A stretch of 64,000 nt of DNA from an uncultured Pelagibacteraceae bacterium (GTDB lineage: Bacteria > Pseudomonadota > Alphaproteobacteria > Pelagibacterales > Pelagibacteraceae): the NCBI GenBank assembly GCA_902576785.1, contig CACGWC010000004.1, forward strand, positions 16,340 through 80,339, given 5' to 3'. This document shows, one piece after another, positions 5,997 through 64,000 of this stretch. Below the pieces are notes generated by a model that saw only the letters and a list, made by a program, of their open reading frames with translations, was not told where the DNA came from and ran no database searches. The position numbers were made by a program, and so were the translations under genes. How positions within the stretch are numbered: the first letter of the stretch is position 1; each line of letters opens with the position of its first letter.

Positions 5997-6971
5997 TTAA
6001 TTTGCTAAAGACGATACTTTATCAATTAACGCACCACCAGTTGGTACTTCTGACGCGAATTGATCGTATATTCCTTTACTTGCACTAATGAAAGCACCTT
6101 TGTCAGCTTCGTTGACTTGAACTCCAGCTGATTTGATAACTCCCAATAAAGATTTTTCAAGATTAGCAGCTTCAGCGTACACAAATTTTTGTGTATCTTT
6201 AGCAGCTTGCTCTAAAATACTTTGTACATCTGCAGGTAGTTTACTCCAGTGGTCTTTATGTACTGTTACATAAGCAGGAGTGTAAACGTGACCTGTAATT
6301 GATAAATATTTTTGAACTTCTTGGAATTTAGCACTAGCAATCTGAGCATATGGGTTTTCTTGTCCATCCATTGTTCCTGTTTTCAAAGCAGTAAATACTT
6401 CTGAGAAAGACATTGGAGTTGGGTTTGCACCATATGATTGGAACATTTTAACTCTCCATTTTGATTTAGGTGTTCTTAATTTAATTCCTTTTAAGTCACC
6501 AGGAGTGTTAATTGGTCTAGTGTTGTTTGTGATATGTCTAAAACCATTTTCCCAAACAGCAATAACTTTGTATCCAGTTTTATCTTCAAGATTTTTAAAC
6601 ATTCCTGGTAAAACTTGGCTTTCAACTTTATTCATGTGATTTCTGTCTTTAATAATGAAAGGCATATCAAATACACCAAACTCATCATGAATAGATGCCA
6701 TTACTGATGAAGGTAACCACATGTTAACTGTACCTAATTTTAGTTTTTGCATTCCTTGTTTGTCTTTACCAAGTTGCGAAGAACCAAAAACAGTTACTTT
6801 TCCTTTGCTGCCTAATCTCTCATTTGCAAGTTTAGCAAAATGATCAACTGATGCAGAAAATAAAGATCCAGGTTTTCCTACGTGTCCAAATTTTACTTCA
6901 GTTGAATTTGCTGAGAAACTTAAAAATAGAGACGATAATAAAACAACAATTATCTTAAAATATTTGTTCAT
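5997..6971 (-). CDS. dctP: TRAP substrate-binding protein
   Basis: Signal peptide, WENGFRH, DLKGIKLR, FSEVFTAL..GTMDGQENP. Confidence 0.93.
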   Translation of the reverse strand: MNKYFKIIVVLLSSLFLSFSANSTEVKFGHVGKPGSLFSASVDHFAKLANERLGSKGKVTVFGSSQLGKDKQGMQKLKLGTVNMWLPSSVMASIHDEFGVFDMPFIIKDRNHMNKVESQVLPGMFKNLEDKTGYKVIAVWENGFRHITNNTRPINTPGDLKGIKLRTPKSKWRVKMFQSYGANPTPMSFSEVFTALKTGTMDGQENPYAQIASAKFQEVQKYLSITGHVYTPAYVTVHKDHWSKLPADVQSILEQAAKDTQKFVYAEAANLEKSLLGVIKSAGVQVNEADKGAFISASKGIYDQFASEVPTGGALIDKVSSLAN

Positions 6972-7060
6972 ATTTCCCTCTTAAGTTTGTTTTTTTTAAA
7001 ACAGCTTATAGAAAATATGAATGCAGTGCTAGGGATTAAATTGGCGTATTGGAAAAAAAA

Positions 7061-37242: not shown

Positions 37243-37244
37243 TA

Positions 37245-37273
37245 AAAAAAGGCCCCATTTATGGGGCCTTTTT
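37245..37273. terminator. Bidirectional Rho-independent terminator between bcp and amtB
   Basis: aaaaaa-ggccccat-tt-atggggcc-ttttt. Confidence 0.85.
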
Positions 37274-37300
37274 AGTTTAACTTAAGGGAGGGAGTTAAAT

Positions 37301-38602
37301 TTAGTCTCTTATAGCGTAAGCTATTACACCAGTTTCAGTTACGTCTGTACCTTTCAGTTCAGCCTCTTTACTTAATCTGATACCCATAGTGTTTTTCATA
37401 ATTGCCCATACAATGTATGATACTACAAAAACAAATGCGTTGATCGAGATTACACCGATTAACTGTGCGCTAAAATTTGCGTCAGAGTTTGTTAATGGAA
37501 CAGCTAATGTTCCCCAAACTCCAGCAAATAAGTGAGCTGGTATTGCACCAACAACATCGTCAATCTTAAATGAGAATAATAGTTTTGTTCCAAACACTAC
37601 TATCAATCCACCGATTGCACCGATGAATATTGCTGCTATAGGTGCTGGCGCTAATGGTTCAGCTGTTATTGCAACTAATCCACCAATCGCACCGTTAAGC
37701 ATTTGAACTACATCAGTTTTACCATACATTAATCTAGTAATTACTGCTGCTGCTAAAACACCACCACACGCTGCTAAGTTTGTATTAATAAATATGTTTG
37801 ATACAGCTACTGCATCATCGAAAGTTCCCATAGCAAGCTGTGAACCACCGTTGAAACCGAACCAACCTAACCATAAAATAAATACTCCAACTGTTACCAA
37901 AGGTATAGAAGAAGCAGCAAATGGTCTCATTGGCTTAGCTGCACCTGATTTATCAAATCTTCCTGTTCTTGCACCTAACAACATAGCACCTGCTAAAGCT
38001 GCAGCACCACCAGTTGAGTGTACAAGAGTTGAACCAGCAAAATCAGAGAAACCTAAAGCGGCTAACCAGCCACCACCCCACTGCCATCCCATGACAATTG
38101 GATAAATGATTCCTGATAAAATTGCTGCAAATAAGAAGAAAGGCCATAATTTAATTCTTTCTGCTAACGTACCAGATACAATTGATACTGTTGTTGCACA
38201 GAATACCATTTGGAAATACCAATCCGAACCATCTGCATATCCTGTATCAACAGCACTTGCATCAGACCACGGAGTGAATGTTCCTATATAGCCACCTTCT
38301 GGAATTCCATATGCTAGATTATAACCTACCATCCAGAACATAATTCCAGCGATTGAAAATAATCCTATATTTTTTGCACAAATTACAGATACACTTTTTG
38401 AAGTTACCATTCCTGATTCTAGCATCGCAAATCCGCAAGCCATAAACATGACAAGAAAACCACAAACTAAAAATAGAAATGTATTAAAAATAAATCCAAC
38501 TTCTGCAGAGACTGTAGATTCGGCATAACCTACACTTGTCATGTTTAGTAAGAAAAACAAACTTACTAAAGGACCGACAAGTTTTTTTAAATGTTTAGTC
38601 AT
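37301..38602 (-). CDS. amtB: Ammonium transporter
   Basis: FQMVFCAT, SG.LAER, DFAGSTLVH, LWLGWFGFNGGS, NGAIGGLVAITA, DDVVGAIPAH. Confidence 0.95.
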   Translation of the reverse strand: MTKHLKKLVGPLVSLFFLLNMTSVGYAESTVSAEVGFIFNTFLFLVCGFLVMFMACGFAMLESGMVTSKSVSVICAKNIGLFSIAGIMFWMVGYNLAYGIPEGGYIGTFTPWSDASAVDTGYADGSDWYFQMVFCATTVSIVSGTLAERIKLWPFFLFAAILSGIIYPIVMGWQWGGGWLAALGFSDFAGSTLVHSTGGAAALAGAMLLGARTGRFDKSGAAKPMRPFAASSIPLVTVGVFILWLGWFGFNGGSQLAMGTFDDAVAVSNIFINTNLAACGGVLAAAVITRLMYGKTDVVQMLNGAIGGLVAITAEPLAPAPIAAIFIGAIGGLIVVFGTKLLFSFKIDDVVGAIPAHLFAGVWGTLAVPLTNSDANFSAQLIGVISINAFVFVVSYIVWAIMKNTMGIRLSKEAELKGTDVTETGVIAYAIRD

Positions 38603-40330: not shown

Positions 40331-41761
40331 TTATTTCAATTTCCATGCAATTATTGGTGATAAAGTTGCCGCAATAAATGAACAAAATAAAAGAGATTGA
40401 GAAACATACGATGGTGCTAAATTAATTGGCAAAATTACGCCAAATAGTATTGATTTAGAAAAATCTGGACTTGGAAAAAATAATAGCCCTGCAATTAATC
40501 CTATTAATATAGAAACATATGCATTTTTTTCATCATAAGATTTAGAATAAAAAGTATAAAAAACACTTAGAACAGCCGCACAACAAAATAAATCTGCAAT
40601 TAAAAATAAATAAAGAATACTAAATCCTTTTGACGCAACAAAAAAAGCTATGACCGAAAGAAAAATAACAAATTGTTTTGAAATATTTAAATGATTATTT
40701 TTTAAATTTAATACTTTATCTACATCTACTATTACCAAACTTGAAATAGCATTTATTAAAGTATCAATACTGCTTATTGTTAAAGAGATAGCTAAAATTA
40801 TTACAATGACTGAAAATATTATTAAATTTTCTTTTAACAAAATTGAGAAAAAAGCAAGATCAGGTATCACATTAGCGTCTTGAGAGACAGCTACTAAACC
40901 ACTAAATCCCATAAAAAAGACTATTGGTATTATTATTAAAAACGAAAATATTAAACTTTTTTTTAAAACTTCGTAATTTTTTGCAGCATAAACTCTCTGC
41001 CAATTACCTTGATGAAAAAGATTAGTTGCAGCAACAGCTATAAAGAAAGTTAAACCGGCAGTATAATTTGGAAGATAACTAAAACTTAACAAATGCGGAT
41101 TATTATTTTTAATAATTTCAAAGTTAAATTCGTTTGTTTCAATTGAGGTAATAAAAATTAAACTGATTATTAAAAGTGCTGTAAATACAAAAAATTGAAT
41201 GTTATCTGTGATTAAAGATGCTCTTAACCCACCATATAATGTGTAAAGTAACGAACATGATATTACAATTAAAGAGGTAATCCACAATTCAGTACCAGAT
41301 ATGTAATTAATTAAAAAAGCTACAGCAGTAACTTCAGCAATTAAAAAGATTGTCATATAAAAAATGGAAAAAACTAAAATAAGTTTATAAAGATTTGGTC
41401 CAAATCTTAATCTTATTATTTCAATAATACTTTTGCCTTGTGGATAACTAGTTCTAAATTTTTTACCAAGATAAATTAAAATAAAAAGCGGAAATGCAGT
41501 TCCTAGTGAATAACCAATCACTGCACCAATTCCTCCCCATGTTGCTGCTGATGCGGGTCCAAATAAAATCCATGCACCAAGTGCTGAAGCAACAAGACTT
41601 GTTGTTAAAGATAAAGAATCAATCGAACGGTTTGCAACTAAATAATTATTAAGTCCTTGAAATTTTTTTGAAAAATAAATTCCAACAAAAACAAATATTA
41701 AAGATATTAAAGTAATTAATATTATTGCTGATGATTGATTGATTATATTTAAATTATTCAT
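40331..41761 (-). CDS. thiV: Sodium:solute symporter ThiV (putative thiamine-precursor/HMP transporter)
   Basis: SSS motifs (YLVANR, ASALGAWIL, YT.YGGLRAS..TD, WQRVYAA) plus the upstream TPP-type riboswitch. Confidence 0.82.
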   Translation of the reverse strand: MNNLNIINQSSAIILITLISLIFVFVGIYFSKKFQGLNNYLVANRSIDSLSLTTSLVASALGAWILFGPASAATWGGIGAVIGYSLGTAFPLFILIYLGKKFRTSYPQGKSIIEIIRLRFGPNLYKLILVFSIFYMTIFLIAEVTAVAFLINYISGTELWITSLIVISCSLLYTLYGGLRASLITDNIQFFVFTALLIISLIFITSIETNEFNFEIIKNNNPHLLSFSYLPNYTAGLTFFIAVAATNLFHQGNWQRVYAAKNYEVLKKSLIFSFLIIIPIVFFMGFSGLVAVSQDANVIPDLAFFSILLKENLIIFSVIVIILAISLTISSIDTLINAISSLVIVDVDKVLNLKNNHLNISKQFVIFLSVIAFFVASKGFSILYLFLIADLFCCAAVLSVFYTFYSKSYDEKNAYVSILIGLIAGLLFFPSPDFSKSILFGVILPINLAPSYVSQSLLFCSFIAATLSPIIAWKLK

Positions 41762-41825
41762 TTTCCCTTTCTGAATTACCGGACAGGTTCTAAGGGTATT
41801 TCTCAGCCTTCTGGCACCCCATTTG
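41762..41825 (-). ncRNA. TPP (THI-box) riboswitch, compact variant
   Basis: Minus strand GGGGUGCCAGAAGGCUGAGAAAUACCCUUAGAACCUGUCCGGUAAUUCAGAAAGGGAAA directly before the AUG. Confidence 0.88.
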
Positions 41826-41829
41826 CAAC

Positions 41830-42585
41830 TTATTTCAAAGAATAAATGAAATCAATTATTAACTTAGCGCTACTAACAAGAATTAAAGCGTAAATGATAT
41901 TATAAAATAAATTTTCCTCAATTATTTTAAGTAATTTGTAACCTATAAAAATTCCAATAAGCGCTAGGGGAAAGAGAGTAACTGATTGATATAAAGTATC
42001 AAAATTCATCATAGATAAATAAACATACAGAGGAAGCTTAATTAGATTAACACAACTAAAAAAAATAATTCTTGTGCCAACATAAATTTCTTTTTTCATT
42101 CTTAGTGGAAGCAAATAAAGACTTGTTGGGGTTCCTCCCGCATGAACACAAAAACTTGAAAAACCAGCAATGGATGAACAAATAGCCCCTTTAAAAAAGT
42201 TTTTTTTTGCCGGTATAGTTTTTTCTTTTTTAAATAGAAAATAATGACCAGAAAATAAAAAACCCATTATTCCAACAATTAACTTAAGCAAATCCTCAGA
42301 AAAATAAGTAAATGTAAATGAGCCAATTATTATTCCAATAGCTGCAAATGGAACTATTAATTTAAGTGTCCCAAAATCAAACTCTCTTCTAAATCTATAA
42401 ACTGCAATAATGTCTGAAAAAATTAATATTGGTAAAATAATTGCAAGTGCTTGATTTAATGGCATTACTACTGTCATTAATGGAACTGAAATTAATGATA
42501 TTGATCCACCTAAACCTGATTTAGCAATTCCATATAATACGATAGCTGGAACAACGCTAACAAAGAATAATAAATTTATCTCCAT
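41830..42585 (-). CDS. Sulfite exporter TauE/SafE family
   Basis: GIAKSG.GG, VPLM, LPIL..SD, SF..HAGG.P, N..KLP.Y. Confidence 0.85.
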   Translation of the reverse strand: MEINLLFFVSVVPAIVLYGIAKSGLGGSISLISVPLMTVVMPLNQALAIILPILIFSDIIAVYRFRREFDFGTLKLIVPFAAIGIIIGSFTFTYFSEDLLKLIVGIMGFLFSGHYFLFKKEKTIPAKKNFFKGAICSSIAGFSSFCVHAGGTPTSLYLLPLRMKKEIYVGTRIIFFSCVNLIKLPLYVYLSMMNFDTLYQSVTLFPLALIGIFIGYKLLKIIEENLFYNIIYALILVSSAKLIIDFIYSLK

Positions 42586-46531: not shown

Positions 46532-46906
46532 ATGAAAAAATATTTTGTCTTTTTTATTTTATTCTTGATACCAAATATCTCATTTGGTTTTGAAAAAACT
46601 ACAAATTTTGATCTGAAAAAATTATTAGAAATTCAAAAATCTGGTAAAACAATTGTTATTAATTCTTGGAACGAATATTGTTCAACATGTGCAGCACAAA
46701 CAAAAGTTTTCGATCAAGCAATGAAAGACTTTAAAGATGTTGAGTTTTTATTTTATGAGCAAACAGAACATGAAGATATTGCTAAAGCTTTAGCTGTTAA
46801 TTATTGGACCACAATAGTAGTTTTTAAAGGTGAAAAAGAAGTAGCAAGAGAAATTGGTTTAACTGACAAAGATCAAATATATAATTTAATAAACAAAGGG
46901 ATATAA
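46532..46906 (+). CDS. Exported thioredoxin-family protein
   Basis: Signal peptide, CSTC motif, T.VVFKG.KEV.R. Confidence 0.8.
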   Translation: MKKYFVFFILFLIPNISFGFEKTTNFDLKKLLEIQKSGKTIVINSWNEYCSTCAAQTKVFDQAMKDFKDVEFLFYEQTEHEDIAKALAVNYWTTIVVFKGEKEVAREIGLTDKDQIYNLINKGI

Positions 46907-46997
46907 TTCCTTTTTACCTCCCCTTTCGAGGAGGTGAATTCAACAAAAAAGAGAGAAATAAATGAATGTTAAATTCAGGAATAATTTTTTAAATTAT
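46904..46997 (-). ncRNA. Candidate small RNA with a three-way junction
   Basis: P1 auuccu/aggaau, P2 gaauuuaaca/uguugaauuc, P3 accuccuc-GAAA-ggggaggu; G-U pairs work only on the minus strand; upstream promoter. Confidence 0.6.
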
Positions 46998-47003
46998 AAC
47001 TGC

Positions 47004-47031
47004 TATATAGAATTAATTTTTTTTTTGTCAA
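47004..47031 (-). promoter_or_regulatory. Sigma70-type promoter reading into the candidate sRNA
   Basis: TTGACA (47031-47026), N16, TATATA (47009-47004); no minus-strand CDS follows. Confidence 0.55.
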
Positions 47032-47061: not shown

Positions 47062-48180
47062 TTAATTAAGCAAAGCTTTGTGAGCTGGTAAATAATCGTG
47101 GCCAAATACATCAGCAACAGCTTTATGAGTAACGCCTCCTTTAAATACATTTAATCCTGCTTGAAAATTTTGATCATCATTTAAAGCTTTTAAGTAACCA
47201 TCTTTTGCTAATTTAGATAAAAAAGGAAGTGTTGCTTTATTTAAAGCAATTGTTGATGTTCTAGGAACACCACCAGGCATGTTTGCAACGCAATAATGAA
47301 TTATATCATCTATTATAAAAGTTGGTTCTGCAAAAGTAGTCGGTTTGCTGGTTTCAACACATCCTCCTTGATCAATTGCAACATCTACAATTACTGATCC
47401 CCTTTTCATTTTTTTTAACATATTCTTTGTAACTAATTTTGGTGCCTCAGCACCTGGTATCAAAACTCCACCTACTAACAAGTCACATTCAGAAATTAAT
47501 TTTTCTAAATCAGTTTTATCACTTAAATTGGGAATTATTTTATCTCCAAACATTTGGGTAAGTTCGTTTAATCTTTTTTCAGATTTATCTACAATATTAA
47601 CCTTAGCTTTCATGCCTGTTGCAATTATAGCAGCATTTTCTCCTACTACTCCACCTCCAAGTATAACTACATTTCCAGGCTCTACGCCAGGTGCTCCTCC
47701 TAACAAAAGACCACGACCTTTTTGATTTTTTTCTAAACAATGTGCACCTGCTTGTACTGACATTCTTCCAGCTACTGCACTCATTGGTGCTAACAAAGGA
47801 AGTCTTCCATTATTATCTGTAACTGTTTCATAAGCGATACATATTGATTTGCTGTCTATTAAACCTTGTGTCAGTTTCTTAGCAGCAGCAAGATGAAGAT
47901 ACGTAAAGACAACTTGATTTTCTCTTATCATTTTTACTTCGCTAGATTGTGGCTCTTTAACTTTAACAATGATGTCAGAGTCGTTAAATATATCTTCAGC
48001 TGTATTAACTATTTTTGCTCCACTTGATACATAATGATCGTTTTCAAATCCTGCTTCAAACCCTCCATTGTTTTCAATTAAAACTTCGTGGCCGTTTGAA
48101 GTCAATATCTTTACACTTTCGGGAGTGAGTCCAATTCTATTTTCCTGAGGCTTTATTTCTTTTGGAACCCCTATTTTCAT
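47062..48180 (-). CDS. ald: Alanine dehydrogenase
   Basis: IGVPKEIK..ENR, KVKEP, FTYLHLA, IAYETV, PMS.VAGR, DVAIDQGGC, CVANMPG. Confidence 0.96.
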   Translation of the reverse strand: MKIGVPKEIKPQENRIGLTPESVKILTSNGHEVLIENNGGFEAGFENDHYVSSGAKIVNTAEDIFNDSDIIVKVKEPQSSEVKMIRENQVVFTYLHLAAAKKLTQGLIDSKSICIAYETVTDNNGRLPLLAPMSAVAGRMSVQAGAHCLEKNQKGRGLLLGGAPGVEPGNVVILGGGVVGENAAIIATGMKAKVNIVDKSEKRLNELTQMFGDKIIPNLSDKTDLEKLISECDLLVGGVLIPGAEAPKLVTKNMLKKMKRGSVIVDVAIDQGGCVETSKPTTFAEPTFIIDDIIHYCVANMPGGVPRTSTIALNKATLPFLSKLAKDGYLKALNDDQNFQAGLNVFKGGVTHKAVADVFGHDYLPAHKALLN

Positions 48181-63181: not shown

Positions 63182-64000
63182 ATGAAAAAAATATTAATAT
63201 CATTATTGTTTCTTCTTTTTGGAACTTCTGCTTACGCAGATTGTAACATTAAGAGTGGATCAATAAATATTTTAGCTAATGATTTTCCAGCTTTAAGAAC
63301 TTTCGTGGAAACAGCTAAAGGATGTAAAGGAAGTGCGGATTTTAAAGTCACACACTCATCTGAGCACAATAAAATTGCTGTGCCAGCTCTAACTGCAAAT
63401 CCATCAGAGTTTTCTGCAAGAATTGCAGCAAATAGCTCTATAGTTCCTTTAATGAACCAAGATTTAATTAGACCACTTGATGATCTTGTTAAGAAATATG
63501 GAAAAGGAATACAAGACTCTCAATTGATAACAATTGATGGAAAAATAATGGCAGTTGCTTTTATGGCAAACACTCAGCACTTATATTACAGAGAAGATGT
63601 TTTAAAAGAATTGGGTATCGCTGTTCCTAAAACATATGAGGAAGTAGTAGCGGCATCAGAAAAAATAAGAGCATCTGGTAAAATGCAATATCCTTACGCA
63701 GCAGCATACAAAGCTGGTTGGAATTTAGCAGAAGAATTCGTTAACATGTACATTGGACATGGAGGAGAATTCTTTAAAGCAGGAACTGCTCAACCAAGCA
63801 TTAACAATGCAAAAGGTGTAGCAACATTAAATATGCTAAAAAAATTAGCAGGTTTAAGTAACCCAGATTATTTAACTCACGATAGTGAAGCTATTAAAGT
63901 TGAATGGGAATCTGGAAATGTTGCATTAATGACTCTTTGGGCATCAAGATCAGGAACATTGCTTGATGATGATGGTGATGCAAAAATTACAGCTGCAACT
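63182..64000 (+). CDS. ABC transporter substrate-binding protein (family 1, carbohydrate-type), truncated by the window end
   Basis: RBS gaggga; MKKILISLLFLLFGTSAYAD..., LIRPLDDLV, IDGKIMAVAFMANTQHLYYREDVL..LGI.VPKTYEEV. Confidence 0.88.
   Translation, partial: MKKILISLLFLLFGTSAYADCNIKSGSINILANDFPALRTFVETAKGCKGSADFKVTHSSEHNKIAVPALTANPSEFSARIAANSSIVPLMNQDLIRPLDDLVKKYGKGIQDSQLITIDGKIMAVAFMANTQHLYYREDVLKELGIAVPKTYEEVVAASEKIRASGKMQYPYAAAYKAGWNLAEEFVNMYIGHGGEFFKAGTAQPSINNAKGVATLNMLKKLAGLSNPDYLTHDSEAIKVEWESGNVALMTLWASRSGTLLDDDGDAKITAAT

Follow-up and report, generated by a model that had tools for sequence, protein, structure and literature searches.

The DNA analysed here (the window) is a 64,000-nucleotide stretch of a SAR11 genome, and the element under study occupies the intergenic region between an alanine dehydrogenase gene (ald) and a convergent thioredoxin-family gene (trx). 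The convergent arrangement given in the initial annotation is confirmed, with trx ending at 46906 on the plus strand and the ald stop at 47062 on the minus strand. The features of the region are as follows.

46532–46906, plus strand: thioredoxin-family gene trx (Pfam PF00085), the convergent neighbour.
46906–46911, minus strand: 3' arm of helix P1, which takes in the final base of the trx stop codon.
46916–46935, minus strand: P3, a GC hairpin with a GAAA loop (helix 46935–46928/46923–46916).
46936–46976, minus strand: P2 hairpin with a UUAAC/GUUGA core stem (helix 46976–46967/46945–46936) and a 21-nt loop; its pairs are counted across the family below.
46946–46966, minus strand: exposed P2 loop, with a candidate anti-AUG CAU (46964–46962) and a candidate anti-SD seed AUUUCUCUCU (46959–46950).
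46977–46982, minus strand: 5' arm of P1, pairing with 46911–46906 in the computed fold as a clade-specific closing helix.
46983–47000, minus strand: variable A/U-rich leader, 15–18 nt long, with 7 of 18 sites variable.
47002–47009, minus strand: −10 region TATATAGC, read as TATATA 16 nt or TATAGC 18 nt from the −35 box.
47026–47031, minus strand: −35 box TTGACA; the A10 run after it is constant in length.
47062–48180, minus strand: ald (Pfam AlaDh_PNT_N/C), upstream of the element and co-directional with it.

The minimum free energy fold and the centroid coincide and reproduce the P1, P2 and P3 helices originally proposed, with an energy of −25.9 kcal/mol (z = −3.7; 1 of 200 shuffles is equally stable) and a predicted unpaired probability of about 0.9 for the P2 loop, and the conserved RNA fold is real at these coordinates. 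The choice of the minus strand also holds: the plus strand folds to only −17.8 kcal/mol, and the G-U pair argument is borne out by the L075 variant, which retains P1 through two G-U pairs on the minus strand and loses it on the plus. Two G-U-compatible changes in P1 occur in L047/L075, and the outer pairs are broken in L071 and L085. Other family copies have a terminator-type hairpin to which P3 is homologous, together with a U-tract that P3 lacks; no terminator-like U-tract is present on either strand at this 46.9-kb copy, which rules out a simple intrinsic terminator (a GC hairpin with a U-tract), the arrangement that is found at the amtB paralogue described below.

The plus strand carries a sequence resembling a start of the solute-binding-protein (SBP) type (GGAGG...AGAGAG-AUG), with 79% identity to dctP starts over 53 nt in five close genomes and, in the own genome, a 35-codon open reading frame after the AUG. 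It is very improbable, and the least probable of the explanations considered, that this captured start is what matters, as a mini-ORF or a decoy, and that the minus-strand fold is incidental. We rejected the mini-ORF because the length variation (15–18 nt) breaks its frame and L047/L075 have lost the AUG; the G-U-compatible variants and the fold energy favour the minus strand, and most family copies have no matching CAU/AUG in the loop.

The minus-strand box TTGACA-N16-TATATA is present as first described, and is omitted by a consensus promoter scanner because the scanner demands a T at the final −10 position. Among clade loci the A-run spacer is 10 nt in 51 of 51, and the −10 region is TATATAGC in 50 and TATACAGC in one. 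The box is a candidate promoter, with a putative start site near 46995. A TATAAT at 46998–46993 was considered as a −10 and discarded because it is unconserved, lying inside the variable leader; upstream regions of tRNA genes yielded no clean −10 consensus. No terminator was found in the interval between ald and the element.

Within the clade the element is under strong purifying selection. Variable sites number 4/77 in the element and 91/193 among nearby four-fold sites (64/158 in ald and 27/35 in trx) across 21 genomes that were picked by ald, include the own genome and, being kin, are not independent; in the same genomes the promoter box varies at 1/31 sites and its flanking spacers at 5/30 and 7/18. 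The sample was drawn from 200 genomes by way of their 30 best ald loci, one of which (L057) was left out with its ald not parsed, and the element is present in all 21 loci with ald at 98% identity or above and absent in eight at 85–90%. In genome G237 (locus L056) ald and trx abut directly with no element between, and the element is therefore dispensable as a junction between them. When GTDB species genomes are scanned for an exact 19-mer, 52 matches result, 51 of them in Pelagibacteraceae in the same context and one an unrelated chance match; the loop core UUUCUCUC is invariant in all 51 clade copies and the CAU is kept in 50. A BLAST search with the element returned full-length copies in just 4 of 100 relatives.

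Sixteen runs on record as RNA contain part of the stretch, and in six of the seven runs examined, from seven studies, unstranded contigs extend without a break from ald across the promoter region and into the element. Run X19 gave no coverage of the element and was of no use as a DNA control. The region thus occurs in RNA libraries, and the contigs are consistent with an ald 3' UTR; short RNAs are lost from such libraries. Contig ends at 46901–46934 were considered as transcript ends but have 30-nt overlaps at polymorphic sites and are treated as assembly breaks. In a further observation, a contig of run X3 turns back 189 nt within trx (46532–46720), possibly as an assembly or ligation artefact.

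The missing U-tract of this copy is the ground for a rival reading, antisense read-through, in which a cis-antisense RNA would run from the TTGACA promoter into the convergent trx–cytochrome b561 genes, with the element as its structured 5' end. No minus-strand terminator is present, and an RNA contig of run X1 spans 46657–46991 and ends near the inferred start, although it is a single unstranded contig. We consider this explanation improbable, given that the homologues end in terminator-type hairpins and adjoin other genes, and that the invariant loop would be left without a role.

A related UCUCU-loop hairpin followed by a GC hairpin occurs genus-wide, mostly directly 3' of amtB or in the gap between DUF924 and DUF952 genes. 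The clade model (R1) recovered the close clade only, together with one useful weak match that opened the wider family. A UUAAC-stem/UCUCUCU-loop pattern has matches in 65 of 150 genus genomes; those judged true lie after amtB with a bidirectional terminator, in the DUF924–DUF952 gap and, once, between a symporter gene and trx, and several others were rejected as chance matches in coding sequence. At E ≤ 0.1 a second model (R2) has matches in 93 of 106 genomes of the genus and in none of 20 from the other family; many of the weak matches are plain terminators, and one of the 93 genomes, G293, is counted in support of no claim. The window itself contains a paralogous copy, which scores 45.9 bits with R2 and 53.3 bits with a third model, R3:

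37244–37302, minus strand: paralogous family copy directly 3' of the amtB stop, a UUUAAC-UCCCUCCCUUA-GUUAA hairpin and a bidirectional terminator.
37301–38602, minus strand: amtB-type ammonium transporter gene (TIGR03644, above cut-off), following an HU gene and with the paralogue at its 3' end.

The stems of the family covary around a conserved loop, with 9 of 14 pairs changed on both sides and 93.5% of alignment cells able to pair, which exceeds all 500 shuffles and every slid control in an alignment that was fitted to the model and for a structure type, the terminator stem, that covaries generically. A model built without the window clade places the element third in its own genome, at 32.8 bits (E of 0.015 per genome), behind the amtB copy and a dctP terminator; under R3 a plain dctP terminator scores higher than the element. 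In pairwise alignments it beats 499–500 of 500 shuffles against three DUF924-type copies and 497, 485 and 268 of 500 against three amtB-type copies, and kinship is therefore good with the former type and moderate with the latter. We infer that the window element descends from a module of the amtB-3'/DUF924 type that lost its U-tract and gained P1 in the window clade.

As a motif-independent check, 20 new amtB 3' ends were picked by protein from 41 relatives; 15 have UCUCU, one has UCCCUCCC and four have neither, and all four are from genomes carrying a DUF924-type copy, these genomes being related and so perhaps representing one event. At amtB the loops of G197 and G237 are CCCUCC, and a search of these two genomes (83–84% complete) for a standalone copy was negative. 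Small A/U-rich hairpins preceding terminators are common at SAR11 3' ends (recA, dctP). Among 21 terminators in the own genome amtB alone has a family-type loop upstream. No convincing copy was found in the viral scan among 80 of at least 120 pattern matches rescored with R2; in the metagenome scan 80 loci among the matches listed were rescored, and 13 are family copies.

Several other observations concern these loci. The majority of the intrinsic terminators detected in the own genome (21 in all) map to positions that match the ends of SBP, amtB and groEL-type genes, and several are bidirectional. Upstream of the standalone copy in the DUF924–DUF952 gap, all 11 aligned loci (L160, L166, L174–L180, L213 and L262) have a conserved palindrome, GTGACA-N3-GTCA, and a CTATAAG box, a sequence arrangement that suggests a regulated promoter with a transcription factor. 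The amtB 3' UTRs of many genomes (for example L163, L256, L639, L645 and L647) contain an extra long GC hairpin between the stop codon and the family hairpin, with loops of CUCUCU or AUCUCCAU and of UUACUCAU/UAUCUCAU that are anti-SD-like and anti-AUG-like. In lineages of other genera or the other family (L307, L309, L310 and L314) the amt 3' loops are C-rich (UUUCCCU, CUCCCC, UUCCCC and CCAUCCCUUAUUUCAU), and dctP and amt starts of these lineages often have GGGGAG/GGGAG; loop type and SD type may co-vary at the genus level, with n small. In G320 a family-like hairpin (L206:1479–1560, minus strand; 24.2 bits) lies between divergent symporter and thioredoxin genes, so that a thioredoxin gene adjoins it as it does the window element. 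The leader of the window's own sodium:solute symporter gene (leader 41762–41830, minus strand; gene 40331–41761) closely resembles that of its orthologue in L206, for which the TPP riboswitch model gives 48.8 bits (cut-off 54.3). The window leader is probably TPP-riboswitch-like, missed at gathering threshold, and the gene a thiV-type transporter gene.

The amtB, ald and DUF924 copies all lie 3' of a co-directional gene. The family could accordingly be a cis-acting 3'-end element. Its hairpins would then shield the 3' end of the mRNA that carries them (aminotransferase–ald here, amtB elsewhere) or set where it lies, and the pyrimidine loop would be a site for Csp-type, S1 or Rho protein instead of mRNAs. 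The continuity of the RNA contigs with ald and the frequency of hairpin-before-terminator architecture at SAR11 3' ends fit such a role, and Csp proteins are implicated in SAR11 translational control in the available portion of PMC2864753. We nonetheless regard it as unlikely, since it accounts neither for the promoter box of constant spacing that immediately precedes the element, nor for the G320 copy, which lies between divergent genes, nor for a fit to SBP starts that exceeds shuffles (see below), and ald and trx manage without the element in G237. Pairing of the loop in cis with the host gene's own start was also considered and set aside: amtB starts have GGAGG irrespective of the loop, and no matching SD is present at the starts of the ald, aminotransferase and DUF924 genes.

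The initial annotation held that the P2 loop is complementary to start regions of SBP mRNAs, citing three examples in the window, and this is upheld by a genome-wide scan in which the loop was duplexed against 1164 start regions called by a simple script, 21 of them SBPs confirmed by Pfam, with further SBPs possibly missed. SBPs take ranks 1–5 and make up 6 of the first 10 and 11 of the first 25 starts, and an Amt start ranks 7th. Pairing with dctP was reproduced, with 12 contiguous pairs plus UGAA, and tauA and the SBP at 63182 are partial matches as reported (ranks 39 and 51); the genome-wide test is the stronger one because its five best targets are outside the window. The dctP site is:

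6967–6982, minus strand: predicted target in the start region of the TRAP gene dctP, rank 13 of 1164.

Much of the SBP signal is due to the strong purine-rich SDs of SBPs. The genome-wide AUC is 0.966 for the loop and 0.960 for a generic anti-SD probe, used in place of a native one because no 16S 3' end turned up in the assembly, and shuffled loops average 0.88. The generic probe places only one SBP in its top 10, however, and among the 150 strongest-SD genes the loop has an AUC for SBPs of 0.853, which none of 300 shuffles reaches; AAGAGAG is present at 6/21 SBP starts vs 2/1143 others. When target opening energy at 20 °C is included (120 genes re-ranked), SBPs make up only 2 of the first 10 and 6 of the first 25, and for several high-ranking SBP starts structure is predicted that would cost 9–12 kcal/mol to open. 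At dctP starts an AGAG-type motif is found in 9/23 from the own genus and 0/15 from sister genera, a comparison that leaves out two loci without an ATG, and the mean duplex energy is equal (−13.0) in genera without a clear copy by the model. DctP was not found in five genomes of the other family, and these genomes are therefore unusable as a target control.

A second anti-SD that had been placed in P3 does not survive: it is fully paired, puts no SBPs in the top 10 and is not kept in homologues, whose P3 is a terminator-type hairpin of different sequence. The two roles given to the P2 loop fare differently, since the anti-SD is family-wide and the anti-AUG CAU is kept in the clade and is not a conserved part of homologous P2 loops; the family seed is therefore the anti-SD UCUCUC. 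A conserved unpaired seed, as in trans-acting sRNAs, is thus present, with UUUCUCUC in 51/51 and predicted to be unpaired, and UCUCU in 15/20 at amtB. Hfq (PF17209) was found neither in the own genome (86% complete) nor in any of five near-complete relatives.

These results can be assembled into a mechanism in which the conserved hairpin exposes the UCUCUC loop on what is likely a small RNA, putatively about 90 nt long when free and working without Hfq, that is probably supplied by its own promoter or by the 3' end of the ald mRNA. The predicted partners of the loop are ribosome-binding sites of the AGAGAG(G) type in SBP and ammonium-transporter mRNAs. Pairing across the SD and AUG normally blocks ribosomes, so that such a duplex would block initiation and lower translation; we infer that pairing takes place in vivo and leads to repression rather than activation.

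The opposite sign, with the family acting in trans to stabilise or activate its targets by opening SD-hiding structure, or else serving as a sponge, seems very unlikely. The predicted cost of opening several of the top SBP starts would suit it, as would the rise, rather than fall, of the TauA, YhdW and OccT proteins on amtB induction in the accessible data of PMC3870248. The pairing nevertheless covers both SD and AUG, a position that normally blocks the ribosome in the AbcR1 and NfeR1 examples of PMC4152367 and PMC10746234, as far as the available parts of these papers go.

Repression by SD pairing would bear on a documented response of SAR11 to nitrogen limitation, in which, according to the accessible text of PMC3870248, the AmtB protein appears and the Amt protein (SAR11_1310) vanishes with amt mRNA unchanged, the authors invoking 5' riboswitch-like structures for the loss of Amt. 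In our genome amt lies in a sox-glnT-glt-amt cluster with the same gene order as at SAR11_1310, and its start ranks 2nd–3rd of 1164 for the amtB-type and DUF924-type loops. The orthologous Amt start has GAGAGA/AGAGAG in 26 of 30 loci; four Amt target sites are without AGAGAG, and the amtB-3' UCUCU loop persists in at least three of those genomes. We suggest, tentatively and as a possibility well short of even, an Hfq-free network in which CU-loop RNAs from the amtB 3' end and promoter-driven standalone copies read AGAGAG(G) as a dedicated address in the ribosome-binding sites of SBPs and the second Amt; if true, it would explain the AmtB/Amt protein switch under nitrogen limitation. Several SBP proteins rise under nitrogen limitation in the available portion of PMC3870248, and blanket repression by the amtB copy is therefore unsupported.

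SAR11 are the commonest ocean bacteria, and the element is likely a small regulatory RNA, predicted to lower the translation of their nutrient-uptake genes. They have few transcriptional regulators, and transcript and protein levels are repeatedly reported as uncoupled, for which the accessible parts of PMC3870248, PMC2864753 and 10.1101/2022.07.21.501054 put forward riboswitches and Csp proteins. A literature search found no trans-acting sRNA for SAR11. As judged from sequence, the copies make up a real, selected and undescribed SAR11 RNA family with a specific predicted target set. The family offers a concrete candidate, with a seed and a ranking of targets in which uptake proteins, the defining trait of the SAR11 lifestyle, dominate, and gives a specific prediction for the unexplained AmtB/Amt switch.

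No description of the family was found in openly readable papers; a 2009 ocean small-RNA survey may list this RNA. Rfam 15 gives no match in the window at gathering threshold, and as surmised in the initial annotation there is no family match to the element at either gathering or E-value thresholds; the best score over it is 25.3 bits to CRISPR-DR53 (cut-off 45), and no Rfam match over the motif in homologue loci exceeds 29.8 bits. Comparison with the available descriptions of the Pelagibacter motifs of Meyer et al. 2009 (PMC2704228) also gives no match. SAR11_0636, rhtB, pntA and babIM are likewise SAR11-specific intergenic structures, and SAR11_0636 is, like the element, a three-stem junction that was proposed as a separate RNA, but the consensus of these motifs differs and UCUCUCU is in none of the eight supplementary alignments searched. 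The available part of the same paper lists a 219-bp SAR11_0784/0785 gap with no RNA assigned, which is probably orthologous to the DUF924–DUF952 gap by its length and neighbours.

The proposed analogy to GcvB and AbcR stands for AbcR, which is closer, and only loosely for GcvB. GcvB represses many transporter binding-protein mRNAs, as is predicted for the element, but is Hfq-aided and targets C/A-rich enhancer sites rather than the SD (PMC4474525, accessible text). GlnZ, an sRNA from the 3' UTR of the nitrogen-limitation gene glnA of enteric bacteria, resembles the amtB-3' copies in its origin (10.1101/2022.04.01.486790 and PMC9731577, both available in part); it has another host gene and lineage, whereas the window element has no Rfam match, follows ald and has a promoter-like box. 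AbcR1 and AbcR2 of the Rhizobiales share with the element an alphaproteobacterial origin and a single-stranded anti-SD directed at periplasmic binding-protein mRNAs, as described in the accessible part of PMC4152367, and enrichment of such targets is seen here in silico (11 of the top 25, and 6 after accessibility correction). AbcR1, as described there, has UCCC in its modules M1 and M2, three hairpins and association with Hfq, whereas the element has one UCUCUC loop, no UCCC modules and no Hfq partner detected (PF17209 in 0/6 genomes). The alpha-r14/cuckoo RNAs (NfeR1, RSs0680) present their anti-SD in a hairpin loop on freely varying stems, as the element does (PMC4615179 and PMC10746234, in the parts available), and NfeR1 is an Hfq-independent, nitrogen-linked anti-SD-loop sRNA that silences periplasmic ABC components (accessible text of PMC10746234). 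These accounts give alpha-r14 RNAs 2–4 adjacent hairpins, each with CCUCCUCCC, whereas the element has a single loop without CCUCCUCCC, and the family in general has one loop, UCUCUC or UCCCUCCC (the amtB paralogue), usually at a gene 3' end. The element thus fails the Rfam models and the defining motifs of both AbcR1 and alpha-r14/NfeR1, and we lean, with somewhat more confidence than doubt, towards an undescribed Hfq-independent anti-SD riboregulator that would work like AbcR and alpha-r14 and be a member of neither.
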